The notes beneath the pieces are model-generated. The model was not told where the DNA came from and ran no database searches. It saw only the letters and a list, made by a program, of their open reading frames with translations. Below, one piece after another: positions 17,554 to 40,209 of a stretch of DNA of 64,000 nt (positions within the stretch are counted from its first letter, which is position 1; the number at the start of each line of letters is the position of its first letter). The stretch comes from an uncultured Veillonellaceae bacterium (lineage in GTDB: Bacteria; Bacillota; Negativicutes; JARBTT01). The stretch is from positions 256,001 to 320,000 of the forward strand of contig CAWDTA010000003.1 in the NCBI GenBank assembly GCA_963805085.1, given 5' to 3'. The position numbers and the translations under genes were made by a program.

Positions 17554-17958
17554 ATGCGTAGTAAATCACAAGCAATATTAGATCAGAATTTAGCAGCGCA
17601 ATATGCTTTAAATGAAAATGAATATGACAGTCAAAAAATTTTGAATATTATCCGACGTTATTATGAGCTAAGAAGTTCAGCCGAAATTACTGCTGCACAA
17701 TATGGCTATGTTAGCAGCGGTAGCGATCCTGCTCATGGTAAAGATTATATTATGTGTGTTCTTGCCGATATTGATCAGGGGGTATCTATATTATCAGCAA
17801 GACAATTGGATGTTGTTAAACTTTTAAAAATGGGGTATCTGATTAAGGAAATTAGTAAAATTTTGGGTCTCAGACAGGTGACTGTAAACTTTCATATCCG
17901 TCAGGCGGGCTTACGGTTAGCCGCCTATCTTAATGACTTAAGGGAAGTGATAAGATGA
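17554..17958 (+). CDS. Sigma70-region-4/LuxR-type HTH protein, putative activator of the tail locus
   Basis: C-terminal LSARQLDVVKLLKMGYLIKEISKILGLRQVTVNFHI HTH; RBS aaggagg. Confidence 0.7.
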   Translation: MRSKSQAILDQNLAAQYALNENEYDSQKILNIIRRYYELRSSAEITAAQYGYVSSGSDPAHGKDYIMCVLADIDQGVSILSARQLDVVKLLKMGYLIKEISKILGLRQVTVNFHIRQAGLRLAAYLNDLREVIR

Positions 17959-18399: not shown

Positions 18400-18876
18400 A
18401 TGATTTCAACATTGAAATTAAGTGACATTACCAGTAAATGGCGGGATGCTTTAAAGGCAAGTACGGCGATTCAAAACTACTGCACGAGCAAGTACAATCA
18501 GATGCCAAAAATCTATGTTGGCATTAACGGTAAAAAATTGCCGGCAGATACCGACTGTCCATTGATCATCCTTTATCCCGGCGCGAAAACGGAAGGGCTC
18601 GAGCTAAAGGAATACACCTATAAACTTACAGTGGGCTGGATCATACTTCAAGACGCGACGACAACGACTAACAACGTAACAGAGTATTCGGGCGTTGCAG
18701 AATGTGATGAACTTGGCCAACTGATATATCAAGAACTGGCGGGACTGAGTACGGATAATCCGATCAGCGAAATGAAGTACAGTATTGAACCAGTGGCCTA
18801 TTATCCGCGTTTTCCCGGACGTATGGATATTACCATAAAATTAACGCCTGTCAATGGCTATAACATTGAATATTAA
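18400..18876 (+). CDS. Putative tail terminator/completion protein
   Basis: Size, position immediately before the tube gene and an alternating beta pattern; family not recognised with certainty. Confidence 0.55.
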   Translation: MISTLKLSDITSKWRDALKASTAIQNYCTSKYNQMPKIYVGINGKKLPADTDCPLIILYPGAKTEGLELKEYTYKLTVGWIILQDATTTTNNVTEYSGVAECDELGQLIYQELAGLSTDNPISEMKYSIEPVAYYPRFPGRMDITIKLTPVNGYNIEY

Positions 18877-18887
18877 GGAGGTACAAC

Positions 18888-19841
18888 ATGTCAAGAGCAA
18901 AAGGATATAATTCTCAATTAGCCATGGGGTATGAAACTACCTATGGCAAAACGCCAACGTCGATTAAGGGGTATAATATGCCGTTTAATCAGTCGAAAAT
19001 CGGAACTAAACAAAATTTAATCGAATCGAGCACTATTCGTGGACGCCGCGATAAAGAACAACCAGCGGTAGGGAGTATCGATGTATCCGGTAGTATCGTA
19101 GTGCCAATCGATCAGGTTGGCATTGGGTTTTGGTTAGCGGCTATGTTTGGCAGCCCGACGACTACTGGTACTGGTGATCCTTATACCCATGTTTTCAAAA
19201 TAAAAGATGGACAGCCCTCTTTAGTGCTGGAACAGCAATACCCAGATATTACAACCTATGAAATGTTTAACGGCTGCAAAGCAAATAAGTTTTCCTTTAC
19301 GTATGGTGGCGATACCGAGTTGACCGCCCAAATAGATTTAATGGGTGCTAAAAGAACGATTGGGGCAACGTCTTTTACCTCTGATTTGACCGATATCTCG
19401 CTATTAAGATACAGCAATTTTCAAGGGACGATCGAAGAAGGCGGTTCACAACTGGCTACTGTGACCGAAGCGAATCTAAACGTGGATTTTGGCCTAGATG
19501 GCAAGTCCTACACCATTGGTGGAGGCGGCTGTCGAACTGAACTCCCGGAAGGATACGTGCAAGCGTCCGGGAATATCAAGGCATTTTTCGAAGATACGGT
19601 GCTGCTGAATAAGGCGATAAATAACACCAAAACATCGCTGAATTTCAAGTTTGCAAATGGCATGCACAGCTTAGGATTTTTCATGGAAGAAGTAATGCTC
19701 CAGCAAACTTCACCCGGTATAGAAAATGAAAAAGGCATCATAATTAACCTACCGTTTAAGGCATATTACAACAGCGGCACAGGTGGCAGTATCCTTGTTG
19801 CGACACTGGTCAATGATCATGCTTCCTACGCAGTGTCCTAA
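18888..19841 (+). CDS. Phage tail tube (major tail) protein, non-contractile type
   Basis: N-terminal G.NSQLAMGYETTYGKTP; LAAMFG..T..G..PYTH.F and GC(K)AN.FSF patterns typical of siphophage tube proteins; RBS aaggagg. Confidence 0.8.
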   Translation: MSRAKGYNSQLAMGYETTYGKTPTSIKGYNMPFNQSKIGTKQNLIESSTIRGRRDKEQPAVGSIDVSGSIVVPIDQVGIGFWLAAMFGSPTTTGTGDPYTHVFKIKDGQPSLVLEQQYPDITTYEMFNGCKANKFSFTYGGDTELTAQIDLMGAKRTIGATSFTSDLTDISLLRYSNFQGTIEEGGSQLATVTEANLNVDFGLDGKSYTIGGGGCRTELPEGYVQASGNIKAFFEDTVLLNKAINNTKTSLNFKFANGMHSLGFFMEEVMLQQTSPGIENEKGIIINLPFKAYYNSGTGGSILVATLVNDHASYAVS

Positions 19842-19901
19842 ACAAAAATAAAACCAAGTAACAGATTAGCGACAAGACTTTATAAAATGTAAACTATATC
19901 A

Positions 19902-19940
19902 TTCTTTACGCATTGTGCTTATGAAACAATGCGTAAAGAA
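19902..19940. terminator. Perfect 15-bp hairpin after the tube gene
   Basis: ttctttacgcattgt-9 nt-acaatgcgtaaagaa. Confidence 0.7.
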
Positions 19941-19950
19941 ACTTGGATTA

Positions 19951-20046
19951 TTTTCAAAGCATAAAATTATATGGTACATATAACTTTAATTTTTCCGCGA
20001 GAAATAGAAAGAGATAACATAAAAAAGGCCTGTTGGCCTTTTTTTA
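19951..20046 (+). repeat. Conserved element upstream of toxin 1 (copy 1)
   Basis: Matches 22783-22869; ends in aaaaaaggcctgttggcctttttt. Confidence 0.7.
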
Positions 20047-20193
20047 ATGGGATAGTATAAAGAAAATTATATAAATGTGCATTGGATAAATACCTGATAT
20101 TACTTAACCTTTGAATAAAAATTCAAAATGTTGTTGTAAAGAGCATCGTTAGTCCTGAAGGCAAGATAATATGCGGAGGGAGGGGATTGATGG

Positions 20194-21651
20194 GTGGATT
20201 GGAGTATAGATGGTTTAAAAGCTGCGATTATTAATGAGACTACTTATGTGAGTAATAAAATTGATAATGAGCTTACTTATGCGTCTAACCAATTAGATAA
20301 AGGGGAAGCTGCGGTTCTTAATGAGGTTACTTATGCAAAAAATGTAGTGGAGAAAGTCTTTTTTCCAGATGCTTCAAATGATCGTCAATCTGGACAAGAT
20401 GAGAGTGACGATACAGCCAGCGCTGCTTCAACGCAATCGGCAAATGGGGTGCCTGCTCCGAGTGGAGAAGAATGGTACTATCAAAAGGCGCAAGAAATAC
20501 AAAATGAGCATCCAGAAATGAGCCAAGAACAGATAACTAATAAAATGTCGGAGGAAATCTGGAACAACAATTATAATGCATTAATGGATGATATTGCCCA
20601 TAGTAAAACGCCGGAAGAACGGGATCAAAAGATTAAAGACTATCAGGCGGAATTAGATAATTATAAAGCATCTGGAATTAATGTTGATAATGATGTAGAA
20701 TATCTTAGAGATGTGCAAGGTATGCCAAAAGAAACTATTTCAAGTAAAATAATTTCTTTGATGAGTAATTATTCATTTAAAGTTGTAGAGTATCAATATA
20801 GTGTACCTCCTGACAGTTTTGCATTTATTGAAATCCCAAAAGACGGAATCAGTATAGAGAAATATACTGATTACCAAATACAAAAGAATGATGCTGAGAA
20901 TACAGTACATAATAGTTTGCAACAACAGGTTGAGGAGTTACTTGAAAAAGCAAAAAAATTACAGTTTATTAACGGTCGTCAATTAACGGACGCGGATCGT
21001 GAAGCGGGTTATCAACTGATGCCAACTCTTAATGGGCTAACCTACGTAAGAGCGAGATATGAGGATGGTAACTGGGTAATCCATCCTGATGACAGGCAAC
21101 TGGTCCAAGAAAGCAACCAAGATGTTGCTAAAGGTATGCTCTTAGGTGGAGTTTTACCAGGTGTAATTAAAGGAGTAAATGCAAGTGGAAAAAGTCTGCT
21201 TAAGGCTTTTACACAGGAGTCGAGTGAAAATTTTAGATTTAAAGAAGTTAATAGATTTACTGCGGAAGAAACAAATCAATGGTTTGTAGATAACATAAAA
21301 CCGGATTATAAACCACCATATAGACCAGGTACGGTCGTGAAAGAAATTGAGTTAAGCGAAAAAACAACATTTGTACGTGTATATGATAATAATCCGGGTG
21401 GATCTGGTAAGTATGGTAGCTGGGTAATGGATGCTAAAGAGATAGAGGGATTGACACCAAATCAGATTCAAGATAAATTTGCTCTGCCGAATATCCCTAA
21501 ATATGTTTGTGATGTTGAATTAGAGTCAGCTACTCGTATACGGGTAGGTGAAGTAAATCCACTTGATGGTTGGGGGGATGGTGGAGGTACACAATATGAT
21601 TTAATTGGACAAAGAATAGGTAAGTTTATAAATGAAAGATTATTAGAATAG
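20194..21651 (+). CDS. Polymorphic toxin 1: shared N-proximal domain plus TNT-like putative NAD glycohydrolase C-terminus
   Basis: APSGEE..AQEIQNEHP..ITNKMSEEIWNNNY shared with 22938 and 24624; C-terminal RVY..GSW..FALP..G..GGGTQY; small gene follows. Confidence 0.7.
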   Translation: MDWSIDGLKAAIINETTYVSNKIDNELTYASNQLDKGEAAVLNEVTYAKNVVEKVFFPDASNDRQSGQDESDDTASAASTQSANGVPAPSGEEWYYQKAQEIQNEHPEMSQEQITNKMSEEIWNNNYNALMDDIAHSKTPEERDQKIKDYQAELDNYKASGINVDNDVEYLRDVQGMPKETISSKIISLMSNYSFKVVEYQYSVPPDSFAFIEIPKDGISIEKYTDYQIQKNDAENTVHNSLQQQVEELLEKAKKLQFINGRQLTDADREAGYQLMPTLNGLTYVRARYEDGNWVIHPDDRQLVQESNQDVAKGMLLGGVLPGVIKGVNASGKSLLKAFTQESSENFRFKEVNRFTAEETNQWFVDNIKPDYKPPYRPGTVVKEIELSEKTTFVRVYDNNPGGSGKYGSWVMDAKEIEGLTPNQIQDKFALPNIPKYVCDVELESATRIRVGEVNPLDGWGDGGGTQYDLIGQRIGKFINERLLE

Positions 21652-21660
21652 GAGAAAACT

Positions 21661-21999
21661 ATGTATAGTATAAAAGATAATAATCTATTTATTAATTTAA
21701 AATGCGTAAAGTTTGATTTTGACATAAGAAATACGGTAGAATATTCGGGGCGTGTAGTTATTCTTTTGAGTATTCCATTTACAAGCAACGATATTAACAA
21801 TATTTATTGTGTAAGTGAGCTTGGAGAAATAATATGGCAGTCAGAAGATCTGAATTTGCTTTATCCTGACCTCAAAAATCTACCATATGAACAAATGGGA
21901 ATAAAAGATGGTATTTTGTATGCTTCTGATTTTTATGGTAGAAGTTATATGATTGATTTGGATACTGGAAGAATAAAAGGCTGTAACATTGTAAAATAA
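21661..21999 (+). CDS. Putative immunity protein 1
   Basis: Small gene 9 nt after toxin 1 with RBS aggag; NNIYCV..GEIIWQ beta-rich pattern. Confidence 0.65.
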   Translation: MYSIKDNNLFINLKCVKFDFDIRNTVEYSGRVVILLSIPFTSNDINNIYCVSELGEIIWQSEDLNLLYPDLKNLPYEQMGIKDGILYASDFYGRSYMIDLDTGRIKGCNIVK

Positions 22000-22272
22000 T
22001 CAGTGAGTTAACTTTAAAGGAAATGTTCACTTCAAAAATTTGAAAAAATTAGCCGCAAAATGGTGGAAGTAAATCATAATAATGAAAACGATTAGGATAG
22101 TAAAAATTAGAGACAAGAACATATTTATCAACAATAATGGCAGCATCTTACGCAGATGCTGCCATTTCCATTACGACTTATCTTTATAGAAGTTGCGGCA
22201 TCCGTCGCACATGACGCACATTAGATCTAAATGTGAATTTCAAAAGTTATAAAAACAAAGGAGGAAAAAACA

Positions 22273-22635
22273 ATGGCACAATTTCCAAATATTCAACAGC
22301 CAGTATACCCATTTACCACTAAAATCAAAGACCCTTCTCTGCAGTCCGAAATGGAAAACGGGATGGTTCTTTCCCGGGCTAAGTTTACTCGGGTACCGAA
22401 GATCTTTACTCTGAAATGGACGGCTTTACCTGCCGCTGATTATGCAAGCTTGCGTGATTTTTACTGCAATACGGTTTATGGCGGGAGTTTGGCGTTTGAC
22501 TGGTCTTATCCAACCGTTGCGGACGACTCGTATTCCGGTAAGCTGTTCTCCGTTCGCTTCAAAAGCGAAGACATTAGTTTCGATTTAGCAGCACCGGGCT
22601 ACTATTCCGGCAGTATAACAATTCAGGAGGTGTAA
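22273..22635 (+). CDS. Distal tail protein (lambda gpM/Dit-like), copy 1
   Basis: Near-identical to 27104-27466; RAKFTR..FTLKW..L....LRDFY...GG..AFDW. Confidence 0.75.
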   Translation: MAQFPNIQQPVYPFTTKIKDPSLQSEMENGMVLSRAKFTRVPKIFTLKWTALPAADYASLRDFYCNTVYGGSLAFDWSYPTVADDSYSGKLFSVRFKSEDISFDLAAPGYYSGSITIQEV

Positions 22636-22636
22636 T

Positions 22637-22768
22637 ATGTTAAATTTATCAGTTGCCGGTATGCTGGAAAAAAGTCAGCTTTCCAGTGACGGTGTATGGC
22701 TTTTGCTAGTGGAAGTTGCTATCCCGGATAAACATAATAAGAATAGATCGGTCATAACGACTGCATAA
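22637..22768 (+). pseudogene. Truncated 5' duplicate of the gpL-like gene
   Basis: First 27 codons identical to 27468 (MLNLSVAGMLEKSQLSSDGVWLLLVEV), then divergence and a stop. Confidence 0.85.
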
Positions 22769-22937: not shown

Positions 22938-24221
22938 ATGAAGTATACATTACCTAATGGAATGACTGTAGATGAAAATGGGATACAAGTACTCCCTGAT
23001 AATAATCAGCAATCGTCAGAAACTACAGAAACAGTGTCGCAAGTAACTACTGCTAGTGGAATTGACATTGGTGAAGAAGCCAAGAAGGCAATGGCTAGAG
23101 ACAATGCAAACGATCAGGGGAGCGAGAAAGTAGAGGTCGGCTCTGCCTTCGCGCAATCGGGAAACGATGTTCATGCTCCAAGTGGAGAAGAATACTACTA
23201 TCGAAGGGCGCAAGAAATACAAAATGAACATCCCGATTGGACTACTGATCAGATAACGAATAAAATGTCGGAGGAAATTTGGAACAACAATTATCATGCA
23301 TTAATGGAGGATATTGCCCACAGTAAAACGCCCGCAGAGCGAGACGCAAAAATCGAACAGTATAAATCGCAGCTTCTAGAGTATTATGTTTCTGGAATTG
23401 ATGTTGATAATGATGTAGAATATCTTAGAGAAGTACAAGGTGTAGAACCTCAATACAGATTATCACCAGACAATCCCGCGTTTGTTGATGCAATATTAAG
23501 TTTTCAAGATAGGGCAAATGGTTATGATTTAGAGGATAATGAAAATCATATAAAATGGAGAATTAAACCTTCTGGTGCAGTGCATCCTGATGATTGGGAC
23601 AATTATCTGATACAGCAAGAATATAAACAGTCTATACAAACAGTTTCTGATAACAACGTGATAAATTCAGAAAATGTGCATAAATTATTAGATGTAGCAG
23701 GTCTTTTTCCTGCTGCTGGTGCTGTTCCAGATCTAGGAAACTCGGCTTTATATTTGTTTGAGGGTAATTATGAAGAATCGAGAAATAGTGCAATTGCAGC
23801 AGTACCATTTGCTGGAGATTATTTTGCCGTAGCAGTAAAAGGTAGTAAGCTTTTCAAAGGTGTAGATGAAACGCGTAATGCTGTTGTCGAAGCTGAGCGC
23901 ATAGTGTCTCAAGACGTTGGTAAAGCCCCGAATGCCAACAATTATAGAAAATTATTTTTGAAGGAAAACCCAGAGATGCCTAAAACATATCAAGTGCATC
24001 ATACTTTGCCGCAAAAGTACGAAGAAATTCTAAATTTCAAGGAAATTAACATTCATGAGGCGAAGTATCTAGAAGGAATTGATCCAGATATTCATAAACA
24101 GATAACAAAGGAATGGCAGAAGTGGGACAAATCTTTAGGAAGAACTCCCACCTCAGAGGAGGTATTTGACTTTACACAGAAAATAGATAGTAAATATGGT
24201 CAGTTTTGGTACAAAAAATGA
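22938..24221 (+). CDS. Polymorphic toxin 2: shared domain, pre-toxin helical segment and HH-motif (His-Me finger-like) putative nuclease
   Basis: LDVAGLFP..G.VPD..NSALY..EG pre-toxin motif; QVHHTLPQ...IH...H..IT.EW. Confidence 0.72.
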   Translation: MKYTLPNGMTVDENGIQVLPDNNQQSSETTETVSQVTTASGIDIGEEAKKAMARDNANDQGSEKVEVGSAFAQSGNDVHAPSGEEYYYRRAQEIQNEHPDWTTDQITNKMSEEIWNNNYHALMEDIAHSKTPAERDAKIEQYKSQLLEYYVSGIDVDNDVEYLREVQGVEPQYRLSPDNPAFVDAILSFQDRANGYDLEDNENHIKWRIKPSGAVHPDDWDNYLIQQEYKQSIQTVSDNNVINSENVHKLLDVAGLFPAAGAVPDLGNSALYLFEGNYEESRNSAIAAVPFAGDYFAVAVKGSKLFKGVDETRNAVVEAERIVSQDVGKAPNANNYRKLFLKENPEMPKTYQVHHTLPQKYEEILNFKEINIHEAKYLEGIDPDIHKQITKEWQKWDKSLGRTPTSEEVFDFTQKIDSKYGQFWYKK

Positions 24222-24234
24222 AAGGGGAATGCAA

Positions 24235-24588
24235 ATGGAAAAACAAAAATTACTTTTTGAAAATCTAAAACGTATAAAAGATTATTGGGTTACCAACGGG
24301 ATACGAGATATTGAGCCTGATGCTGATTTGAGATTTTCTGATGTTAAGGAGGCCATTCAAGAATTGCAAAAAATAATATCTACTCAAAGTCAAAAAGATG
24401 CCTATAAGAGAGTCTTAAATGATATTATTGAAGGGGTTTTTCACTCTACTTTAGTAATGATTGATGGTGGAGATGCTTTAGCTGATAATATGAAAATTGA
24501 TTTAGTGGATTTTGATACTGGTGAGTCGTTAAAGGGCAAAACAGCCTTGCATGAAGAGTTTTTCGGCTATTTGCTGGATAATGAATGA
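24235..24588 (+). CDS. Putative immunity protein 2
   Basis: Follows toxin 2, RBS aaagggga; FHS.LVMIDG...LHE.F pattern. Confidence 0.65.
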   Translation: MEKQKLLFENLKRIKDYWVTNGIRDIEPDADLRFSDVKEAIQELQKIISTQSQKDAYKRVLNDIIEGVFHSTLVMIDGGDALADNMKIDLVDFDTGESLKGKTALHEEFFGYLLDNE

Positions 24589-24647
24589 AATTAAGATAAT
24601 TACTAACAACGTGGCAGCATCTCATGAGATGCTGCTATTTCCATTAC

Positions 24648-25586
24648 TGGACTACTGATCAGATAACGAATAAAATGTCGGAGAAAATCTGGAACAATAA
24701 TTATAATGCATTAATGGAGGAGATTGCCCACAGTAAAACGCCCGCAGAGCGAGACGAAAAAATCGAACAGTATAAATCGCAGCTTCTAGAGTATTATGTT
24801 TCTGGAATTGATGTTGATAATGATGTAGAATATCTTAGAGAAGTACAAGGCGTAGAACCTCAATACAGATTATCACCGGATAATCCCGCGTTTATTGATG
24901 CAATATTAAGTTTTCAAGATAGGGCGAATGATTATGATTTAAAGTATAATGAAAATTATGTAAAATGGAGAATTAAACCTTCAGGGGCAGTGCATCCTGA
25001 TGATTGGGACAACTATCTGATACAGCAAGAATATAAACAGTCTATTTCAGATAATATGGTAGCGAAAGCTAGTATGGTTGTTGGTGGCCCTATAGCAGGA
25101 AAGGCATCCCAAGAGGTTAGCGTAGTTACAAAAGAAATAGCTGAGACTGAAAGTACTTTTGTGCAGGAATCAAGTAATGCTGTTGCTCGTGATACATATG
25201 ATGGAGTAAAGGAAGCTTCAGAATATTTGAAGTCTCAGGGAGTTTCTAGGCAATTCCGCAAACAAATATTAGAATCATTTGATGCAGGGACTATTAAATT
25301 GCAAGTTGCAGATGAAAATACTTATGGATTAAGATTTTATGATGGAGTAAATGCTGAAGCTAGGGGGAGATATCTGTTTGAAAGTTTTAACAATTTAACT
25401 AATCGTCAAAATTTAGCACTTCCACCAGAATGGAATGAAATGAGTGGGATTAAACAGTGGCGAATTGAACCCGATACAACAATGATAACAGGAGAAGCTG
25501 CTTCACAGTTTCAATTTGGATTTCGATATGTCGGAGGTGAAAAACAATGGTATATAACGGATCTAAAAAATCTTCTAGAACCATAA
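24648..25586 (+). pseudogene. Orphan (5'-truncated) toxin 3 cassette with a TNT/Tse6-like putative NADase C-terminus
   Basis: 24648-25045 is near-identical to 23238-23635 of toxin 2, then a different C-terminus (RFYD..GRYL..LALPP.WN..G.AA.Q..GG..QW); no RBS, and the track ATG lies in a hairpin loop. Confidence 0.72.
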
Positions 25587-25852
25587 TTTTAAAAAATCAA
25601 GTATTAATACTTATGGATAAGGCTATAGAGGATATTCAAAGTGAGATAAATAAACATAAATGTGGGATAATGGCTAATGGAACGATTGCCCAACTAGAAC
25701 ATATATGTAAAGAAGTTGAAAAAATGAAATCTACACTAAATTCCAAAATATTTCTCCCATCATATCCAGTGATTATTGTAGATTCATGGGATTTCAAATC
25801 TACTTTAGGGAATGATTTATTAAACTTATTGGAAAAATATAAAGAACTGTGA
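25583..25852 (+). CDS. Putative immunity protein 3 (helical); start uncertain (ATA 25583 or ATG 25613)
   Basis: Directly overlaps the toxin 3 stop; IAQLEHI and IVDSWDF.S.LG motifs. Confidence 0.6.
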   Translation: MILKNQVLILMDKAIEDIQSEINKHKCGIMANGTIAQLEHICKEVEKMKSTLNSKIFLPSYPVIIVDSWDFKSTLGNDLLNLLEKYKEL

Positions 25853-25959: not shown

Positions 25960-26908
25960 CAATGTCATTAAGTTAAGGGTAGAGGATAAATCTCTAAAAG
26001 AATTGAGTACAAAAAATGCGTACCCGGTTCTTTTTTTTGTAGAAAAAGGTTGACAAACAGACAAAAATATGTGGCGCAGCCCCTTGAATGAATACATTTT
26101 GGGAGGTTTCGCTTATGAATTTCTCTGAAAGCGTGAAACAGGTATTGTTGGGAAAAATACAGGAGATGGCAACTTGTCCTAGATCGTTTGTACGCAATCC
26201 CGACAGTGATTTTACAAGAAAGCGAAAGCTTGATCTTGAAACAACTATTCGGTGTCTGATTGCCATGGAAAGCGGTAGCCTGAAGAAAGAACTGTTGGAG
26301 CTTTTCCATTACAATCTTGACACCGCGACGGCATCGGCTTTTAATCAGCAACGGGAAAAGATACTGCCGGAAGCGTTGGAATTTCTTTTTCGTGAGTTCA
26401 GCAAAGCTTTTGCACAATATCAAACATATCGTGGATATCGATTGCTAGCCTGTGACGGCACTGCCTTGAACATAGCTCGAAATTCAACCGATCAGGAAAC
26501 TTATTTTCAGTCAATTCCCGGAGATAAGGGGTTTAATCAACTCCATCTAAATTCTCTATACGATTTATGCAGCAGACGCTACGTAGATGCCATAATCCAG
26601 CCGGAAAGAAAAAAGAATGAGTGCCGTGCCATGACGGACATGATCGACCGGTGCGTTTCCGAACACAAGACAATATTTATTGCCGATCGCGGTTATGAAG
26701 CTTACAACACCTTTGCCCACGCAGAGCAAAGAGATATGTATTATCTTATACGCGTAAGAGAATCCGGGCATAGCATGGTAGCTAGCTTTGGGTTGCCACT
26801 AACCAATTCATTCGATACACGAGTACAATTGACACTGACCCATAAACAGACAACTCAGGCAAGAGCCTGTCCCAGTTATAAATTCCTTCCCTTAACTTAA
26901 TGACATTG
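25960..26908 (+). mobile_element. Internally deleted IS4-family insertion sequence
   Basis: 20-bp IRs caatgtcattaagttaaggg / cccttaacttaatgacattg; 10-bp target duplication gcagagatgc at 25950-25959 and 26909-26918. Confidence 0.9.
26115..26900 (+). pseudogene. Truncated IS4-family DDE transposase
   Basis: DFTRKRKL, LACDGT and IADRGY present; the C-terminal Y-x2-R-x3-E segment is absent; ORF ends within the right IR. Confidence 0.85.
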
Positions 26909-27467: not shown

Positions 27468-28085
27468 ATGTTAAATTTATCAGTTGCCGGTATGCTGGAA
27501 AAAAGTCAGCTTTCCAGTGACGGTGTATGGCTTTTGCTAGTGGAAGTTACCATTCCAGAATCTGCTGAGCCTTTGCGACTTGTGCGCAATAATGAGGACA
27601 TCAGTTGGAATGGCTATACTTGGACAGCGTTTAATTTTAAACTCGGTGACATTACAGAGGATAGCAAAGGCAGGCCGCAGTCCGTACCGCTGCAGGTTTC
27701 AAACCTAACGCAAACTGTCCAGGCCTATGTAGAGGAAAATAGCGGTCTGACGGGTACGACGGTAGCACTGCGGGTGGTCCATTCCGAGCATTTGGACAAT
27801 GCTTCACCTGAATTGGAAGAAATCTTTACTGTGCAGTCTACGACCTGTGATAGTAAATGGATTACTTTTTACCTTGGCTGTGAAATATCCATTCAGCGGA
27901 GATTTCCTGCTCGGCGGGTACTGAAGAATTTCTGTGCTTGGCGCGATCAATACAAGGGAATCGAATGCGGGTATAACGGATCGCTCGCGGAGTGTGACGG
28001 CACGCTAGAGTCCTGCCGTGATCGAGGCAATGCGGCTCGCTACGGCGGCGAACCTAGCATTCCGGAAGGAGGTTTGTATGCCTAG
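27468..28085 (+). CDS. Tail tip protein, lambda gpL-like
   Basis: C-terminal four-Cys motif CAW...ECGY.G...CD.TL..C..RGN..RYGG.P. Confidence 0.8.
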   Translation: MLNLSVAGMLEKSQLSSDGVWLLLVEVTIPESAEPLRLVRNNEDISWNGYTWTAFNFKLGDITEDSKGRPQSVPLQVSNLTQTVQAYVEENSGLTGTTVALRVVHSEHLDNASPELEEIFTVQSTTCDSKWITFYLGCEISIQRRFPARRVLKNFCAWRDQYKGIECGYNGSLAECDGTLESCRDRGNAARYGGEPSIPEGGLYA

Positions 28086-28482
28086 TATGAAGAGAACATT
28101 TACGGATATCATCGGCTTACCATTTGTTGATGGTGGGCGAGACCCAACTACTGGTTTTGATTGCTGGGGACTCTCTACTGAAGTTTTCCGACGCTACGGG
28201 CTTAAGCTGCCCGACTACAAAATATCTTGTGAAGAGGCTAGTTCGATTCACAGTGAAGTGCATAAGCAAAAACAATTTTGGCGCAGGTGTGAGGGAGAAA
28301 TCCCCGTTCCTGCGCTTGTTGTTATCCGCTTTACCGTGTACTGTGACCATACTGGGGTGTACATTGGTAACGGTCGGTTTATCCATACCCGCAAAGGAAT
28401 TGGTGTCAACATCGACCGCATTGACAGCCCCGCTTGGGCGAAACGTATTGAAGGATTCTATGTACCGGAGGTGATGGCATGA
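28078..28482 (+). CDS. NlpC/P60 tail assembly protein, lambda gpK-like
   Basis: GLPFVDGGRD...DCWGL, HTGVYIG..RFIH; RBS aaggagg before ATG 28078. Confidence 0.85.
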   Translation: MPSMKRTFTDIIGLPFVDGGRDPTTGFDCWGLSTEVFRRYGLKLPDYKISCEEASSIHSEVHKQKQFWRRCEGEIPVPALVVIRFTVYCDHTGVYIGNGRFIHTRKGIGVNIDRIDSPAWAKRIEGFYVPEVMA

Positions 28483-31400
28483 TTACAATAACGATTATAA
28501 AAAACCCGTTTGATCATAGTGAAAAAGAAGTCTATACGTTAGAATACATCCCTGAAAAAACGGCATTTGAGTATGTTCAGCCTTATATTATGGGATTGGA
28601 GGACTATATTGTCAGTATCAACGGCGACGTTGCGGAGGATGCAAAAGTACAGGTGGTAAATTGTGATGACTGGCTGGCCGTTTGTCCAATTGTCGGTAAA
28701 AGTGGCCGGGACTGGTTTAGAACTATTGGAACGATGGCAATGGGATACGCTGTTAGCGGGTTGGGAAATGCGAAGGCTTGGAGAGCCTTTTGGGGAGAAA
28801 GTAAATTCTGGGCTAATATGGCCGCTGGGGCTGTTGGCTTAGTCGGCGGAACATTAATCAACCATTGGTTCCCTGCGGCCAAAGCAGATCAGGTCGAAAC
28901 CAAATCATCCTACAACTGGAGCAACGCGCAATCACAAACCGGTCAGGGCAATGCTCTGGCCGTTACGTATGGTACCATGCGGACAGCGGGGCAGATACTT
29001 GCACAGCATGTGTCAAGTAATGACGAAGATCAGTATCTGAATATCCTGCTGTGCGGCGGCGAAGGGCCGATTGACAGTATTAACGATATTCGGATTAATG
29101 ACAATCCCATTTCTTACTATAAAGGCGTAACTGTTGAAACCAGACTAGGTGCTAATGATCAAGCAGCGATTGCCAATTTTAACGATACCTATGATGATCA
29201 GTCGTTAGCCTACGAACTCAATACCGACGGCAGTTGGGCCACGCAGCAAACTGAGGGGAATGCGGTAGAGGGACTGGAAATCACGTTGCAGTTTCCCGGC
29301 GGTTTATACTATGTCAATGATGACAGCGGCCTAGGAAATGCCTCTGTTACTGTAATCATGCAGTACCGTAAAGTCGGTGATACGGATTGGAATAGTGTTA
29401 CTACCGCCACCATTACGGCAGCGAAAAACACCGCTTTTTTCCGAACCTATCGCCTAGATAATTTTACTGCCAATCAATATGAAGTAAGAGCCCAGTGTAC
29501 ATCTAAAAGTGGTACAAGTACTCGGTATTCCACCCACGTGTATTGGACGCAGCTATCGAGCATCATGTATGACGATTTTGCCCGTCCCGGCAAGGTACTT
29601 GTCGGCATCAAGGCGCTCGCAACCAACCAGTTGAGTGGAGGCACGCCGAGTATAACCTGGCTGCAGACTCGCGATAAGGTTTGGGTCTGGAATTCTGAAA
29701 CCAGCAAATATGAACAAAAATCTGCTGCGAATCCGGCTTGGGCGGCCTATGATATGATTCACCGTTGCCGACAGATTAAAAATATCCACACCGGTGGCTA
29801 CGAGTTTGTTGTCCAAGGCGCTCCGGCATCGCGAGCAGTGTATCAGGATTTCGTCCGATGGGCGACGTTTTGCGATGATCGAAGTTTAACCTTCAATTAT
29901 ATCTTCGATACGGCGAATGATCTCTGGACATTGCTGCAGAAACCAGAGGGCGTTGGGCGGGGCAAAGTTATCATGCGGGGTACAAAGTTTGGTTGTGTCT
30001 GCGATGCTCCCGGTGATCCAGTGCAACTATTTACTGTTGGCAATATCCTTACCGATAAATTCAAGGAAAGCTTCGTCAGCCTGAAGGATCGGGCCAACGC
30101 GATAGAAGTTTCCTTTCCTAATAAAAACAAAGCCTATGAAAAGGAAGTTATTACGGTTTATGCTGACGATTATGACGAGTCGACAGAACCCAATATCACC
30201 CAGATTACCTTGGATGGCGCTACCACTGTCGAACAGGCTTACCGGGAAGCCAAATATCGGTTAAGGCTAAATCAATACCTAGTGCGGACGGTGGAACACA
30301 GCGCAGATATTGATGCAATCGCCTGCCAAATTAACGATGTTGTCCTATTGGCGCATGATGTGCCACAGTGGGGCTTTTCCGGACGCCTGCTTGCTGCAAC
30401 GGCGACGACACTGCAGCTTGATCGCGAGGTAACGCTCGAACCGGACAAATCCTACGCTGTGGCGCTTCAGATTACCAATTTGGCGGCAACGGCGAATCAA
30501 GACGTCCAAACTATTGTAACTGTCGGTGTGCAGGGGGTAACAGAGGAAACTACCACCGATACGATCACCGTTATTGATTCGTTGTCTACAGTTCCACTAA
30601 AGTGGGATCTCTATAGCTTTGGTGAAACGAACAAAGTTGTTAAGCCGTTTAGAGTACTCAATATCAGTCGTGATCAGGACCTAAGGCGCAAAATTTCTTG
30701 CCTTGAATATATTGAGGAAATCTACACGGAGGCAACAGATATACCTGAAATAAATTATAGCGAGCTGGATACGATGCCTGAGGCTAGTAGTCTAAGTGTC
30801 GCTGAAGAAACCTACCGACAAAAAGATGGCACTATGGTTTCTGATCTTAATGTTTCTTGGCGCATCCCGCGTACGAATGAGATCAGTGGTTATAAAGTAC
30901 TGTATAGTAGCGACAATGGCACGACCTGGACGGAGTGGTGCAGAGGTATAAAAGTGCTAAGTACTTCAATTGTCGGCGTAAAAACGGCGACTACGTATTT
31001 GGTAAAGGTTTGCACCATCAATATTCTTAACAACGTATCGAATGGAATTCAGGCTTCAATATATGTTACCGGGAAAGATCGTCCGCCATCCGATGTTGCC
31101 AGTTTGGCGGCCTCGTTTGATACTACAGATTTATCAAAAGTCATTCTGTCATGGTCAGCGGTTGATGATATTGATCTAGCTGGATACCGAATTCGAGAAG
31201 GTACGAAGATTATCGAAAATCTGGCTCAGATTACGACCTATACCTATGCTGCAACTGAAAGCCGTGCGCACACCTTCGCGGTTACGGCTGTCGATAATTC
31301 TGGCAATGAGTCTGCTGCGGCAGCTACGGTAACTGTAAAGGTAACCGTTGAGCCAGCCGATGTTCAAGATTTTGCTATTAAGCAGCGAGCGTCCGACCGT

Positions 31401-33422
31401 TGCTATGTGGACATGTCCTGGACGGCAATTGCCGATACCAGTCTATCGCACTACGAAATTCGTATGGCAACGAATGATGACTGGAGTTCAGCCACCGTTA
31501 TTGCCAGTCAACTAAAAGCCACTAGTTATAGTTATCAGCTGATGTCAGAAGGCTATATCTATTTCTTTATCAAGGCAGTAAATTCCGGTGGTTATTACAG
31601 CACAGCGGCGGCTGAAGATGCGCTGCAAGTAGTTTTGAAGCCGGATGCTGTTGCCAATCTCTCAGCTACTCAAAGCTCCAAAGATAAAAGTATCGTCATT
31701 TTAACCTGGGATGCGGTAAGTGGGGATGACATTGCCGGATATAAAGTTACGGTAGACGACGGCACATATATTACTAAAGAGCTTACCCATAGCTATGAGG
31801 CAAGTGAGAATAAGACGTATACTTTCTCGGTGCAGTCTATAACTACAGCGGGATATTGTTCTAAGGCCACAAGCTGCAGTATTGCTGTGACAATCTCGGC
31901 GATAGACGTTACCGGATTTTCCGTCAGACAATCCTCGACTGACCGGACGAAGATCATTTTAACGTGGGATACTCCGATAGAGCTTGATGTATCGTACTAT
32001 ATTATCAAGCTTGGCACGTCATGGGAGACGGCTGCGATCTTAGGCAGCCGGGTAACTGGTACAACATATGAAACGACGATAACCACTGAGACGAAACATT
32101 CATTTTTGATTAAAGCGGTTACCTTGGCCGGAAATGAGAGTCAATATCCAGCAGAAGTCAATTGCGTATTTGACCTTAATCCCGTCCCGGTAACGAACAT
32201 CATTTTGTCGCAATCGTCCGCTGATAAATCGGTGCTGAACATATCCTGGACAGGCATCTTGGAGAGTGATCTAGCCTACTATGATGTGCGAGTAGGCTCT
32301 TCCTGGGACGATGCAACGCAAATTGTAACTACCAAGGAAACTAGTTGCACATACACTTTGAGTGCAAGTGGTACGGTAAAAATTCTCATAAAATCAATGA
32401 ACGTAGCCGAGTATTATTCGGAAGAAGCTACGGCAGCCCTCTATTGTACGATAGAGCCAGCAACAGTATCCAATTTTCGGGTGTACCAAAACGGTGAATA
32501 TGTGGAATTGTATTGGGATAAAGCGGTTGAGGCCGATGTGGTAAGCTACGAAATCCGGGAAGGGTCAAGCTTCAGCATCGGTTCATTGGTGGTGACAGGA
32601 CAGACGACAACAAACTATAAGTATATCGTGGATACCGAGCGAAAGTACCAGTATCACATTAAAGCAATTAATAAAAGCGGGTTTTATAGTTCGTCGGCTA
32701 CCAGTGGCAGTGTGATTGTGAGTGATCTTTCAGCAAGAAATGTGATTGAATCCTTTAATGAACTTACGCTACAATCCGGTACACACGCCAATACGGCTAT
32801 TGGCACGTCGCAGTATAAATTTAGCAATCTAGGCGGTAAGTTTAGTGATTATACGACAACGAAATATAGTGAAATTGGTGGAGCAACTGTGCTTAAATTA
32901 GCGATGAATGATGCAGTGTATTATTCTTCCGGCGTATATACGGGCGAGCAGATAGACATCGGTCAGATTATCACCGCCAATATAACGGCTTATTTTGTTT
33001 CAACAGTACTTTTTGTGGCGGGAACTTCGGCTGCGCTCGAATATAGGACGAGCCAGGATGGCAGCACGTTTACAGACTGGCAGGATTTTAAGGCTGTACA
33101 GGCAACCTTCCGCTATTTGGAATTTCGGGCGATCTTGGCTACGACGGATACAACCAAAACACCGGAGGTTAACCATTTTACTATTTCGGTGGATGTGCCG
33201 GACACAGATTTGAGCTTAACGGCTACCGTAGCCGCTGGTGGGACTACAATTAACTATGGACAGACATTTTATATGATTCCGGTGGTTACGCCAACAGCGA
33301 TAGGTGAGAACCTATATGCACAGGTAATATCAAAAACGAAATCCAGCGTAACACTTAAGGTGAAAGACTCGTCAAGTAATGACGTTGGTGGAATGGTAGA
33401 TTTACGAGTTAAAGGATATTAA
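28479..33422 (+). CDS. Central tail fibre / tip attachment protein (lambda gpI+gpJ-like) with tandem FN3-like repeats
   Basis: YG..RTAGQ, GEGPIDSI, NPAWAAYD, NAIEVSF motifs; about seven P..V..[FL]....W....D...Y repeats. Confidence 0.85.
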   Translation: MITITIIKNPFDHSEKEVYTLEYIPEKTAFEYVQPYIMGLEDYIVSINGDVAEDAKVQVVNCDDWLAVCPIVGKSGRDWFRTIGTMAMGYAVSGLGNAKAWRAFWGESKFWANMAAGAVGLVGGTLINHWFPAAKADQVETKSSYNWSNAQSQTGQGNALAVTYGTMRTAGQILAQHVSSNDEDQYLNILLCGGEGPIDSINDIRINDNPISYYKGVTVETRLGANDQAAIANFNDTYDDQSLAYELNTDGSWATQQTEGNAVEGLEITLQFPGGLYYVNDDSGLGNASVTVIMQYRKVGDTDWNSVTTATITAAKNTAFFRTYRLDNFTANQYEVRAQCTSKSGTSTRYSTHVYWTQLSSIMYDDFARPGKVLVGIKALATNQLSGGTPSITWLQTRDKVWVWNSETSKYEQKSAANPAWAAYDMIHRCRQIKNIHTGGYEFVVQGAPASRAVYQDFVRWATFCDDRSLTFNYIFDTANDLWTLLQKPEGVGRGKVIMRGTKFGCVCDAPGDPVQLFTVGNILTDKFKESFVSLKDRANAIEVSFPNKNKAYEKEVITVYADDYDESTEPNITQITLDGATTVEQAYREAKYRLRLNQYLVRTVEHSADIDAIACQINDVVLLAHDVPQWGFSGRLLAATATTLQLDREVTLEPDKSYAVALQITNLAATANQDVQTIVTVGVQGVTEETTTDTITVIDSLSTVPLKWDLYSFGETNKVVKPFRVLNISRDQDLRRKISCLEYIEEIYTEATDIPEINYSELDTMPEASSLSVAEETYRQKDGTMVSDLNVSWRIPRTNEISGYKVLYSSDNGTTWTEWCRGIKVLSTSIVGVKTATTYLVKVCTINILNNVSNGIQASIYVTGKDRPPSDVASLAASFDTTDLSKVILSWSAVDDIDLAGYRIREGTKIIENLAQITTYTYAATESRAHTFAVTAVDNSGNESAAAATVTVKVTVEPADVQDFAIKQRASDRCYVDMSWTAIADTSLSHYEIRMATNDDWSSATVIASQLKATSYSYQLMSEGYIYFFIKAVNSGGYYSTAAAEDALQVVLKPDAVANLSATQSSKDKSIVILTWDAVSGDDIAGYKVTVDDGTYITKELTHSYEASENKTYTFSVQSITTAGYCSKATSCSIAVTISAIDVTGFSVRQSSTDRTKIILTWDTPIELDVSYYIIKLGTSWETAAILGSRVTGTTYETTITTETKHSFLIKAVTLAGNESQYPAEVNCVFDLNPVPVTNIILSQSSADKSVLNISWTGILESDLAYYDVRVGSSWDDATQIVTTKETSCTYTLSASGTVKILIKSMNVAEYYSEEATAALYCTIEPATVSNFRVYQNGEYVELYWDKAVEADVVSYEIREGSSFSIGSLVVTGQTTTNYKYIVDTERKYQYHIKAINKSGFYSSSATSGSVIVSDLSARNVIESFNELTLQSGTHANTAIGTSQYKFSNLGGKFSDYTTTKYSEIGGATVLKLAMNDAVYYSSGVYTGEQIDIGQIITANITAYFVSTVLFVAGTSAALEYRTSQDGSTFTDWQDFKAVQATFRYLEFRAILATTDTTKTPEVNHFTISVDVPDTDLSLTATVAAGGTTINYGQTFYMIPVVTPTAIGENLYAQVISKTKSSVTLKVKDSSSNDVGGMVDLRVKGY

Positions 33423-33434: not shown

Positions 33435-34751
33435 GTGAATTATATGTCATACAATAGCAAACTACCTATGGATGATGAATATATCGCGGCAGGTCCAACG
33501 GATATTCGCGAAAATCTTAGGGCATTAAAAGAGGATCAAATCGTCGATGCAGGAACGTTGGCTGGCTTGCCGGTGGGGAACGCCAGTGGCAATATTCCAG
33601 AAGCAAATGGAATCGTAAATAAGAATTTAAACGCCGACCTATTAGATGGGTATGAGGCAAGTGATTTTGCTACAGCGAGTCACAATCATTCGGCATCTAC
33701 AGCCTCAACCGCCGGATTTATGAGTGCTGCCGATAAAACCAAGCTGGACGGCATAGCCACCGGCGCCCAAGTTAACCAAAACGCCTTCGGAAATGTGGTG
33801 GTGGGTGGTACAACTCTTCAGGCTGATTCGATGACTGACACATTAACGTTAACAGCAGGAACAAACATTTCTCTTACTCCCGATGCCACCAATGACGCGG
33901 TAACGATTGCTGTATCAGGGACAGTACCTTCAGCCACTACGGCCACCACTTGCTCTGGTAATGCCGATACGGCTACGAAGTGGGCGACCGCCCGGACGCT
34001 GAGTTTTACTGGCGATGCCACAGGATCGATGTCTGTAGACGGAACAGCTGCGGCTAACGCTGAGCTAACCCTTAAGTCTACCGGTGTAACTGCAGGAACC
34101 TATCGAAGTGTTACCGTCGATGCCCAAGGCAGGGTGATAGCTGGGGCGAGTCCCACTTCTGAGGCTATTGATATAACAGGTAATGCGGCGACGGCTACTT
34201 CATGTAGTAGCGTAGCAAATGATAGCGGTAATATGCAATTCCATTGGAATGGACAAAGTGGGCAGCCAACTTGGCTGTGGGGTGGAAATGATTTTGGTAA
34301 TATGTATGTATATAAACCAAGTAATTTTAGGGTGAATTATGCGGATACTGCTGGAAACGCAAATACGCTTAATGGCAAAACTATTGCTGATTTAGGAACA
34401 GTTAAATTTAACACACAATATAGTGCTTCTTTTGACGGTAAGATTCTTAAAATAGTTGGCGAATTAACTAAATCTACTACTGCAACCGGTAAAGTTGCCC
34501 ATGGCGCGATTATAGCTGTACCAAGTGGATATACAAGAAGTCAAATTTATAGAGTGGATTTAACCCCTGTGTCTGGAAGTGCTGATAGCTATTATACTCC
34601 GGATGTTTGCAGTTATGATTATTCTAGCGGTCAGGTAACTTGCTATGTAGATATTACAACTACAAGTGGTGGCGGTATTTGTTCTGGACCAAGCACATAT
34701 ACAAAACGGCATTATGGTTCTGCTACTTATACGTTATATGCCGCACAATAA
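33435..34751 (+). CDS. Tail fibre / receptor-binding protein
   Basis: NADLLDG, AGFMSAADKTKLDGI, GNA.TAT.W.TAR, GV.AGTY.SVTVD..GRV fibre motifs. Confidence 0.8.
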   Translation: MNYMSYNSKLPMDDEYIAAGPTDIRENLRALKEDQIVDAGTLAGLPVGNASGNIPEANGIVNKNLNADLLDGYEASDFATASHNHSASTASTAGFMSAADKTKLDGIATGAQVNQNAFGNVVVGGTTLQADSMTDTLTLTAGTNISLTPDATNDAVTIAVSGTVPSATTATTCSGNADTATKWATARTLSFTGDATGSMSVDGTAAANAELTLKSTGVTAGTYRSVTVDAQGRVIAGASPTSEAIDITGNAATATSCSSVANDSGNMQFHWNGQSGQPTWLWGGNDFGNMYVYKPSNFRVNYADTAGNANTLNGKTIADLGTVKFNTQYSASFDGKILKIVGELTKSTTATGKVAHGAIIAVPSGYTRSQIYRVDLTPVSGSADSYYTPDVCSYDYSSGQVTCYVDITTTSGGGICSGPSTYTKRHYGSATYTLYAAQ

Positions 34752-37313: not shown

Positions 37314-37487
37314 GTGGGAGATGATACTGTTCTTAGATTAATCAACAAAATAGACGATTTAAGTGATCGGTTGGCTAGAGTTGAAACATTGCTGGAAGAA
37401 CGGGAGAAAAGCAAAGTAAGTATTGTTGGATTACTCGCGTGGTTAACAACTACCGTAATAGCAGTTTATGGGGTGTCACATAAATAG
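37314..37487 (+). CDS. Holin-like / XhlA-like small membrane protein
   Basis: Coiled coil RLARVE followed by one C-terminal TM helix; precedes the endolysin; GTG start after strong RBS. Confidence 0.6.
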   Translation: MGDDTVLRLINKIDDLSDRLARVETLLEEREKSKVSIVGLLAWLTTTVIAVYGVSHK

Positions 37488-37503
37488 AGAGGAGGGACTA
37501 GAG

Positions 37504-38064
37504 TTGAGAAAAGTAACACTAGAAGAATTGCGACAGCTTGCTTTAAATAGCAAAGAATCGCTTTGGCAAGCGGCGCACAGCGTAGACCGTGATATAAAGC
37601 TATACCTTCATTGGTCAGCTGGCCATTATGGACAATTTTTTGATGACTATCATATCAATATTGATCAAGATGGTAGTATTCATATCAGCACTGAAGATTT
37701 AAGCACTGTATTAGCGCATACTTGGCATAGAAATACCGGGGGTGTGGGGATTGCTTTAGCTTGTTGCGTAGGTGCTGCTACGAATGGTCTAGGACTCGAA
37801 CCGCCTACAACCAGACAAATTGAAGTTATGGCGCAGGTGGTCAGTGTATTAGCAGATGCCTTAGATTTAACCATCGATCTTCAGCGTGTCATGACGCATG
37901 GGGAGGCTGGTGATAACATGGATGGCTTAGATTTAACCGAAAAATATGGTATGAACAGCACTTGTGAACGCTGGGATGCTGCTATATTGCACAATGGTGA
38001 CACTTGGGGCTCCGGTGGAGATATTTTAAGAGGTAAGGCCATTTGGTATCAAAATAACCCATAA
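37504..38064 (+). CDS. Endolysin, N-acetylmuramoyl-L-alanine amidase (Amidase_2-like)
   Basis: LYLHWSAG, YHINID, AHTWHRN..GIA, THGE zinc-amidase motifs; TTG start after gaggagg. Confidence 0.8.
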   Translation: MRKVTLEELRQLALNSKESLWQAAHSVDRDIKLYLHWSAGHYGQFFDDYHINIDQDGSIHISTEDLSTVLAHTWHRNTGGVGIALACCVGAATNGLGLEPPTTRQIEVMAQVVSVLADALDLTIDLQRVMTHGEAGDNMDGLDLTEKYGMNSTCERWDAAILHNGDTWGSGGDILRGKAIWYQNNP

Positions 38065-40105: not shown

Positions 40106-40209
40106 TTAGGTTTTGCATCTCTAAGTCTGGAATTCAATGAGTTTATGTTAACCATTTATAAATGAAAAAAATTAAGCAGGTAATGCTGAAAGAAAAGGAG
40201 TTAAGGAGT

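Follow-up and report, generated by a model that had tools for sequence, protein, structure and literature searches.

We analysed a stretch of 64,000 nt from an uncultured Veillonellaceae bacterium (contig CAWDTA010000003.1, positions 256,001 to 320,000; here called the window), and studied an element that runs from window position 17554 to about 41778. This element encodes a lambda-like tail without head genes, and carries a toxin gene and an immunity gene 3' of its tube gene, the place where phages with this tube type have their chaperone gene or genes and the gene for the tape measure protein (TMP). Analysis of related genomes showed that the absence of the TMP is a conserved state of a whole clade of such clusters in the Negativicutes, and is no strain-specific deletion. 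On balance we favour the view that the element is a domesticated, head-less, non-contractile lambda-like tail element whose TMP-less product would be a tailocin-like particle carrying effectors. We put forward more tentatively the proposal that the clade as a whole represents a previously undescribed protein-injection device, built on a non-contractile lambda-type tail that has lost TMP and chaperones and carries exchangeable effectors by way of two loading domains.

Loss of the tape measure protein across a Negativicutes clade

The tube protein was searched for in 401 Negativicutes genomes with a match threshold of E <= 1e-20. It was found in 47, and these fall into two identity groups: 16 genomes from several families with a tube at least 68% identical to that of the window, and the rest with a tube at most 55% identical. 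Relatives carrying the cluster of the first group, referred to below as the clade, are soil bacteria, with records under the names Massilibacillus, Pelosinus and Sporomusa. The relevant region could be read in 15 of the 16 clade genomes, the contig of G192 being too short, and no chaperone or TMP open reading frame (ORF) was present in any of the 15. Toxin-like ORFs with small downstream ORFs lie between the tube gene and gpM in 13 of these genomes and ahead of gpM in G184, which brings the count to 14 of 15. G208 lacks gpM and gpL, and its tube gene is followed by an ORF, possibly split, that ends in a motif resembling by eye the second shared domain of the toxins (domain 2, described below), which was not detected there with a hidden Markov model (HMM) at E 1e-3. 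Pfam families assigned to the slot proteins were Colicin-DNase/WHH, EndoU, Ntox10, lysozyme and DUF6883, the last of which has no assigned function, and the neighbouring immunity families were Imm42, CdiI_ImmP, Tdi1/SUKH and DUF6985.

We compared these clusters with nine sister loci whose tube is at most 55% identical (L020, L021, L056-L059, L061-L063). Each of the nine has a TMP, of 353-1248 aa, together with chaperone-like ORFs of 81-121 aa. Five of these match DUF1799, a chaperone type seen in sister loci only, and a shared C-terminal motif ends six of the nine TMPs. A tblastn search with the TMPs and chaperones of L020 and L021 gave no match even in the other TMP-bearing loci, and is therefore uninformative on absence. 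In a tree of tube proteins, the 16 toxin-slot rows together with L053 and L029 form one clade with a support of 84 in the Shimodaira-Hasegawa-like approximate likelihood ratio test (SH-aLRT), and the TMP-bearing L056 branches just outside the toxin-slot clade, following the long-branched row L012. The L056 locus is a complete prophage, with genes for capsid, lambda-type portal and terminase. L021 and L057 are tail-only elements with short TMPs, the short TMPs of the sister loci being of 353 and 411 aa.

The ratio of nonsynonymous to synonymous substitution rates (dN/dS) was determined for six tail genes of the window against six relatives, and the values, taken only where computable, were 0.036-0.135. 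The genes contained no internal stops. This indicates that the tail genes are under strong purifying selection and, as far as substitution patterns tell, in use.

Several loci depart from the usual layout. On contig C90 of G184 (L053, L076) the order is regulator, two effectors, gpM, gpL, gpK, the 158-aa protein otherwise encoded 5' of the tube gene, tube and gpJ, with all parts present. Three tube genes lie within 20 kb in G160 (C1:276000-316000; L050, L051), each with an effector/immunity pair and gpM, and whole modules of 158-aa protein, tube, effector and gpM have therefore been duplicated in tandem; the first unit ends in a 23-codon gpL fragment. L060, with a tube 50% identical, is a hybrid in which the tube gene abuts gpM and an effector fragment follows gpK. 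In the slot of G090 (C19; L054) we found genes for a membrane protein, for a protein of 643 aa that ends in a phage lysozyme domain and for one of 177 aa whose N-terminus is hydrophobic, and an effector with both shared domains (DUF6883) is encoded between gpL and gpK of the same locus. Among the TMP-bearing loci, G068 (C6:28000-60000; L068, L057) has a contractile cluster (sheath, baseplate J, fibre) directly 5' of its tail-only lambda-like cluster. The latter has the 411-aa TMP and two gpJ-like matches, one of them partial, and the layout recalls the tandem of R- and F-pyocins.

The slot between the tube gene and gpM

The features of the slot and its borders are as follows.

18888..19841, + strand: tail tube protein (PF18906 Phage_tube_2, E 1.8e-57; phrog_290; PDB 8xan_B 'Major tail structural protein', E 4.9e-13)
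19842..20193, + strand: non-coding leader of 352 nt containing two hairpins, one of 15 bp and one terminator-like; the 3' part of the leader recurs ahead of toxin 2
20194..21651, + strand: toxin 1, 485 aa, with, from the N-terminus, a repeat helix, shared domains 1 and 2 and the toxin domain
21661..21999, + strand: immunity gene of toxin 1, 112 aa, with a homologue 3' of the toxin-domain homologue in 34/34 metagenome loci with room for it
22273..22753, + strand: duplicate of the gpM-like gene (22273-22635, 120 aa) and the first 39 codons of gpL (22637-22753), assigned by amino-acid identity to the copies at 27104 and 27468

A reading of the window made from sequence alone (the sequence-only reading) had stated that the interval from tube to gpM holds only a hairpin, toxin 1 and its immunity gene. 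Our analysis confirmed this content and its coordinates. No credible ORF was found in 19842-20193. The leader RNA would form the 15-bp hairpin at about 19902-19940 and the terminator-like hairpin, with its U-run, at about 20018-20050, with a folding free energy of -45.6 kcal/mol (z -5.8 against 200 shuffles), and a search of the leader against Rfam gave no family up to the gathering score. Toxin 2 is preceded by the same leader with an identical hairpin, AAAAAAGGCCTGTTGGCCTTTTTT (20019-20046 = 22843-22870). Toxin 1 starts with a GTG behind GGAGGGAGGGG, a strong ribosome-binding site, and an in-frame TGA lies upstream at 20188; we preferred this start because the homologue P0002 begins as in the GTG reading. 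An ATG at 20190, one base out of the toxin 1 frame, opens a 14-codon ORF (region 20187-20234) that uses the same ribosome-binding site as the GTG at 20194.

In toxin 1, domain 1 spans residues 87-176, domain 2 residues 247-312 and the toxin domain residues 345-485, the limits of the last two being approximate. An AlphaFold2 (AF2) model with a mean predicted local distance difference test score (pLDDT) of 59 has a helix at residues 5-56; two small domains are folded, the linkers are disordered and the toxin domain is globular.

Tape measure proteins have an aromatic periodicity of 11 and 18 residues, and the sequence-only reading had pointed to such a spacing in the N-terminus of toxin 1. The motif NE.[TS]Y..N begins at residues 14, 25 and 43 of toxin 1, so that the motif count bore out the three repeats with Tyr at 18, 29 and 47 and spacings of 11 and 18. 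Toxin 2 had been reported to lack the repeats, and the motif was found neither there nor in toxin 3. Tandem Repeats Finder detected no DNA tandem repeat in 19800-22300. In 232 proteins (112,821 residues) the strict motif occurs 15 times, duplicate entries included, each time in toxin 1, P0002 or the L017 protein P0122, the last of which has three exact 11-residue repeats. Since the motif is confined to three distinct proteins of the 232, it is not due to chance; since these three belong to one N-terminal subtype, it is no general property of slot toxins. The toxin of L025/L047 has aromatic residues spaced by 11, as read by eye. AF2 places one long helix over the repeat region (residues 5-56) at a pLDDT of about 50, and a coiled-coil N-terminus is plausible for this repeat subtype on the strength of the model.

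The sequence-only reading had suggested that toxin 1 may be a lumenal, tape-measure-like cargo or descend from a TMP-toxin fusion, a view that would suffer if close relatives had a normal TMP here and the repeats were not conserved. On the first of these two points the relatives speak in its favour, as none of the 15 has a normal TMP, which excludes a simple deletion, and the toxin/immunity pair in the slot of chaperones and TMP is the conserved state of the clade. The repeats did not follow this pattern and are limited to the three proteins above. A role of the toxin as lumenal cargo is our best mechanistic guess.

Effectors are modular cassettes with two marker domains

In addition to toxin 1, the element encodes the following effectors and putative immunity proteins.

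22938..24221, + strand: toxin 2, 427 aa, with shared domains 1 and 2 and an HNH-like C-terminus (motif by eye)
24196..24588, + strand: putative immunity gene of toxin 2, by position only; no family match
24624..25586, + strand: toxin 3, an N-terminally truncated orphan cassette with partial domain 1, domain 2 and a different C-terminus
25547..25852, + strand: putative immunity gene of toxin 3, by position only
39539..40105, + strand: membrane protein 5' of effector 4, a possible immunity gene by its hydrophobic sequence and position only
40162..41778, + strand: effector 4, 538 aa, with a lipase-like N-terminal part (GDSLGG, by eye) and domain 2 in the C-terminal half

Over its last 140 or so residues, toxin 1 shares 65-80% identity with the C-termini of LXG (PF04740), RHS-type (PF25023) and PT-TG (PF14449) toxins. 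We located 35 metagenome loci with this C-terminal domain, and a homologue of the 112-aa gene follows in all 34 with room for it, its start being at most some 160 nt from where the toxin match ends in 33 and about 1 kb away in L104. Tube, gpM and domain 1 were found in none of the 35 loci. The shared C-terminus and the linked 112-aa gene therefore identify toxin 1 and its immunity gene as a mobile cassette. NCBIfam gave nothing for the toxins and immunity proteins. Toxin 3 is 83% identical to toxin 2 over 161 aa and lacks the N-terminus and the start of domain 1. Domain 2 of effector 4 was located at 41245 (E 3.6e-28), and relatives of this protein carry PF01764 Lipase_3 and PF26363. Across the clade the toxin types include nucleases, a lipase type and cell-wall hydrolases. 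Judged by sequence, these toxins are polymorphic effectors of modular build, with a variable N-terminus, domain 1, domain 2 or both, and an exchangeable toxin domain.

Domain 1 comprises about 90 aa ('APSGEEWYY...IWNNNY...SGIxVDND') and is confidently predicted as a helical bundle. Only 56 clusters match it among 1.84 billion representative proteins. It was found in 8 of the 401 genomes, all eight of which have the clade's tube, and all 16 places where it occurs are on contigs with the clade's tail genes or fragments of them. Three proteins of 855-1235 aa (P0136, P0164 and P0167) have from one to seven domain 1 stretches, seven in P0136; two of the three contain a mid-protein AHH nuclease, and all three have a long, helical-looking C-terminal region.

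Domain 2 is shorter (about 65 aa, 'GYxL..WRV..G.VHPDD') and is predicted to form a short helix, a hairpin and a helix. It occurs in 48 proteins of 260-555 aa, joined to EndoU, Lipase_3, Ntox44, CdiA_C, CHAP, Amidase_6 or Ntox10, and the hosts, where named, are Sporomusaceae or unclassified Firmicutes bacteria. Among the 401 genomes domain 2 is present in 18, and 14 of these have the clade's tube. In G034 (C5:125018-126505; positions 9218-10705 of L071) a 495-aa domain 2 effector with an amidase/CHAP-like C-terminus, by eye, is followed by a 171-aa gene, with no tail genes within 10 kb.

Six-frame scans detected domains 1 and 2 in 16 of 18 clade-type loci vs none of the nine TMP-bearing loci. 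No relative of either domain was found in Pfam, NCBIfam or by structure, domain 2 by itself being barely probed by the fold-search lists. Foldseek searches of the PDB with the toxin 1 model gave no match at E <= 0.001, and VIA wide gave generic helical matches with a best Z of 7.8. For a model of domains 1 and 2 the best Z in VIA wide was 6.5, and BFVD gave nothing at E <= 0.001. In a protein atlas the neighbours of toxin 1 residues 1-320 were N-termini of polymorphic toxins, with scores of at most 0.81 that make them leads only. These results indicate that the two domains are new and, on present sequence matches, almost confined to the clade's clusters.

Residues 79-240 of toxin 2 were modelled by AF2 with a mean pLDDT of 79. 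A predicted complex of this segment with three copies of gpJ residues 1-200 (the gpI-like plug) scored 0.02 vs a mark of 0.32, and gives no verdict either way.

The two gpM copies of the window share 97.5% amino-acid identity and the gpL fragment is 79% identical to its counterpart; at the DNA level, 22227-22526 repeats 27058-27357 at 93%. The cassettes have a GC content of 0.33-0.35 vs 0.41-0.48 for the tail genes. The duplicated segment of gpM and truncated gpL, together with the repeated toxin leader, indicates that cassettes were added by recombination.

The remainder of the element

The other genes of the element, in window order, are as follows.

17554..17958, + strand: LuxR/sigma-region-4-like regulator at the head of the cluster (PF00196 GerE, E 1.4e-6; phrog_3512 sigma factor), with homologues in the same place in relatives
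18400..18876, + strand: 158-aa tail protein, by position probably the tail terminator (phrog_17431, E 7e-44), always directly 5' of the tube gene
26088..26900, + strand: IS4-type DDE transposase (PF01609, E 2e-11), with a 93% identical copy on contig C4
27104..27466, + strand: gpM-like gene in the position of the distal tail protein, in line with gpL (phrog_384; dN/dS 0.04-0.10)
27468..28085, + strand: gpL-like hub protein (PF05100, E 3e-18)
28018..28482, + strand: gpK-like NlpC/P60 protein (PF00877, E 5e-15)
28479..33422, + strand: gpI-gpJ fusion of 1647 aa, tip plug and central fibre (phrog_31, E 4e-162; phrog_32 at residues 60-184; PF24801)
33435..34751, + strand: tail fibre (phrog_7389, E 1e-30)
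37468..38064, + strand: N-acetylmuramoyl-L-alanine amidase, a likely lysis enzyme (PF01510 Amidase_2, E 4.6e-5, just below the curated cut-off)

In phage PP992516 the gene in the position of the 158-aa protein is annotated as a putative tail terminator, and the dN/dS of the 158-aa gene is 0.07-0.10 where computable. The gpM-like gene lies 5' of gpL across the relatives. Sequence searches of the PDB with gpM and the 158-aa protein gave no match. The fibre and amidase genes are separated by a pair of neighbouring DUF6734 paralogues (35250-37015). At the position of the amidase, L025/L047 have holin-sized and amidase-sized ORFs, and no holin was identified in the window. A 283-aa ORF 3' of the amidase gene (38076-38927) has no family match, and its C-terminal third is alanine-rich and, by eye, helical. 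The element is flanked by ABC-transporter genes upstream and HAD/DeoR housekeeping genes downstream, with head genes absent, and the same holds in G006.

Comparison with known systems

Among the closest known systems are the F-type tailocins, such as the F-pyocin of Pseudomonas aeruginosa and the Listeria monocin, which are likewise head-less chromosomal lambda-like tail clusters and share with the element a tube, a gpM-type adapter, a gpL hub, a gpI plug, a gpJ fibre, a side fibre, a regulator and, probably, a lysis enzyme. Killing by F-type tailocins is ascribed to the tail itself and needs the tape measure, and we know of no polymorphic toxin/immunity cassettes in the F-pyocin. The F-pyocin has an essential TMP and chaperones, whereas the clade's cluster lacks both and carries effector cassettes. 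A preprint reports that the C-terminal coil of the F-pyocin TMP is held by the gpI-like plug, and that deletion of the TMP or of a chaperone yields tubes that lack tips and do not kill (bioRxiv 10.64898/2026.02.24.707460).

Extracellular contractile injection systems (eCIS), such as PVC and Afp, and type VI secretion systems (T6SS) resemble the element as tail-derived machines with exchangeable effectors that bear marker or loading domains, and with orphan effector/immunity pairs. They are contractile, with a sheath and baseplate, whereas the cluster of the window has no sheath family. Neither VipB (the T6SS sheath) nor WXG100 (type VII secretion system, T7SS) was found in the genome of the window, which is 83% complete, so that absences within it are provisional. 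The eCIS retain a tape-measure-like protein. All phage-tail-derived toxin injectors described to our knowledge are contractile.

Polymorphic toxin systems (T7SS LXG, RHS, contact-dependent inhibition (CDI) and MuF) have in common with the element a variable C-terminus, a downstream immunity gene, orphan cassettes and N-terminal trafficking modules. They differ in that no LXG, WXG, PAAR, MuF or filamentous haemagglutinin module is present here, PF04740 (LXG) not being found in toxins 1-3, and in that the machine is a siphophage-type tail. The portions of Zhang et al. 2012 available to us list T6SS, PVC and MuF as phage-derived routes (PMC3482391).

TMPs with enzymatic domains form a further parallel, as their gene also lies between tube and distal tail protein and their product leaves through the tip and may carry an enzyme. 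The TMP of sister locus L062 has a tail lysozyme domain, and a 643-aa lysozyme-domain protein occupies the slot of L054. The slot toxins differ in having no sequence relation to TMPs, no chaperones and no C-terminal motif, and in being much shorter and made of discrete domains.

In its workings the element would best be likened to a cross between an F-type tailocin and a cargo-carrying injection system. It lacks the TMP and chaperones of the former and the sheath of the latter, and its cassettes have the features of a polymorphic toxin system. Full-text literature searches turned up no account of a siphophage-type tail that lacks a TMP and bears toxin cassettes.

Alternative explanations

The strongest alternative is that the cassettes are passengers. 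The toxins would then be soluble and bacteriocin-like, using the tail cluster only for induction and lysis and entering their targets alone; domains 1 and 2 would serve in receptor binding or translocation, and the tail particle would be independent of them. We consider this unlikely. In its favour, the toxins have their own leader with terminator-like hairpins, effectors occupy several positions, some far from tail genes, three genomes have domain 2 without the clade's tail, and the toxin/immunity cassette is common to other delivery routes. It leaves unexplained, however, why it is precisely the effector-bearing clade that has no TMP and no chaperones, and why the tail genes of a TMP-less cluster are under strong purifying selection. 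The location of all 16 domain 1 places on contigs with tail genes or fragments also speaks against independence.

A second alternative, which we regard as improbable, follows one side of the sequence-only reading: toxin 1 would itself be the tape measure, or the descendant of a TMP-toxin fusion, with a periodic N-terminus that sets tube length. Toxin 1 does occupy the slot, its predicted helix at residues 5-56 covers the 11/18 repeats at a pLDDT of about 50, L017 has its three exact 11-residue repeats, and the sister tail-only TMPs of 353 and 411 aa are in the size range of toxins. Against this, hhalign of seven sister TMPs with the toxins gave a probability of 0.12%, and Pfam and PHROGs gave nothing. 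The conserved C-terminal motif of the TMPs is absent from the toxins, the chaperones are absent too, and the repeats are limited to three distinct proteins. The slot toxins vary in length from 283 to 674 aa and have at least four unrelated N-terminal types, and the toxin 1 prediction consists for the most part of small, separate domains joined by disordered linkers. Homologs with a long TMP fused to a shared domain had been proposed as a check on common descent. No TMP family was found in 14 scanned domain 1 proteins, the ones of 855-1235 aa included, and the 48 domain 2 proteins are all of 260-555 aa. Taken with the small size of some slot toxins and the presence of marked effectors elsewhere in the cluster, the hhalign result speaks against descent from a TMP or a fusion.

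It is very improbable that some other genomic locus provides a TMP in trans. A search for such a protein, also proposed earlier, yielded a single candidate, a 1444-aa TMP-like ORF on contig C5 (805261-809595) with a weak match to two sister TMPs; it lies within a separate tail module that has its own tube-sized, hub-like and gpJ-like genes. This module (C5:796816-822002) has a 389-aa protein 5' of the TMP-like ORF, gpJ-like genes 3' of it and no counterpart of the window's tube. PF10145 and PF09718 had no match in the genome, at its 83% completeness, the chaperones are missing as well, and the loss is common to 15 genomes of several families.

Finally, the notion of a decaying prophage remnant with non-functional tail genes in which toxin cassettes settled by chance could draw on the insertion sequence (IS) element, the duplicated gpM/gpL fragment and truncated toxin 3 in the window and on the damaged variants L052 and L060, but is hardly credible given dN/dS values of 0.036-0.135, frames that are intact across several families (the 1647-aa gpJ included) and a gene order that recurs in most clade genomes read.

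A TMP-less tail as a proposed effector carrier

We return to the view that the element is a tail-derived carrier of effectors. The analysis shows which genes the element holds and that they are conserved, that the TMP was lost, that the toxins are cassettes, that the two domains go with these clusters and that the tail genes are under purifying selection; physical loading, ejection and the setting of tube length we infer. Since deletion of the TMP abolishes tips and killing in the F-pyocin, a lambda-like tail that is under selection and has no TMP needs a substitute. Since effectors with domain 1 or 2 are the only clade-specific gain, they are the candidates for that substitute.

In the clade the two tail chaperones and the TMP were lost, and effector/immunity cassettes stand where their genes would be as well as at several further places in the cluster. 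On this model, domains 1 and 2 would recruit effectors into the tail (tip and tube), where they would take over the space and role of the TMP. Lysis would release the particle, gpJ and the fibre would bind the target cell, and the effectors would be expelled into it as a TMP would be, with the immunity proteins protecting kin. The number of cassettes would grow through recombination at repeated gpM-gpL ends and leaders, which would account for the duplicated gpM/gpL fragment, toxin 2, truncated toxin 3 and the IS element.

Several observations weigh against this model. The terminator-like hairpin between tube and toxin 1 and the toxins' own leader suggest partly separate expression. Some slot toxins have only about 125 residues before the toxin domain (L051, 283 aa); N-terminal parts of this length cannot measure a tube, which leaves tail assembly and length setting unexplained. 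Marked effectors also lie outside the slot, between gpL and gpK (L054), after gpK (L060) and 3' of the putative lysis genes (window 40162-41778; L018), so that position alone implies no TMP function. Domain 2 effectors away from tail genes were seen in G053 (C1) and, as a weak match, in G006 (C12), and three genomes have domain 2 where no tail of the clade was found: G034, with the amidase-type effector of 495 aa, G010, with a fragment, and G132, with a weak match. Some loci are damaged or rearranged, with gpM and gpL missing from L052, the tube gene joined to gpM in L060 and a permuted order in G184.

If the model holds, siphophage tails can be converted into cargo carriers, and the question arises of how assembly of the tube would start and stop without a TMP. 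As two new effector-marker domains, domains 1 and 2 may lead to toxins and immunity genes in a poorly studied group of bacteria, and they could serve as handles for loading other proteins into such particles.

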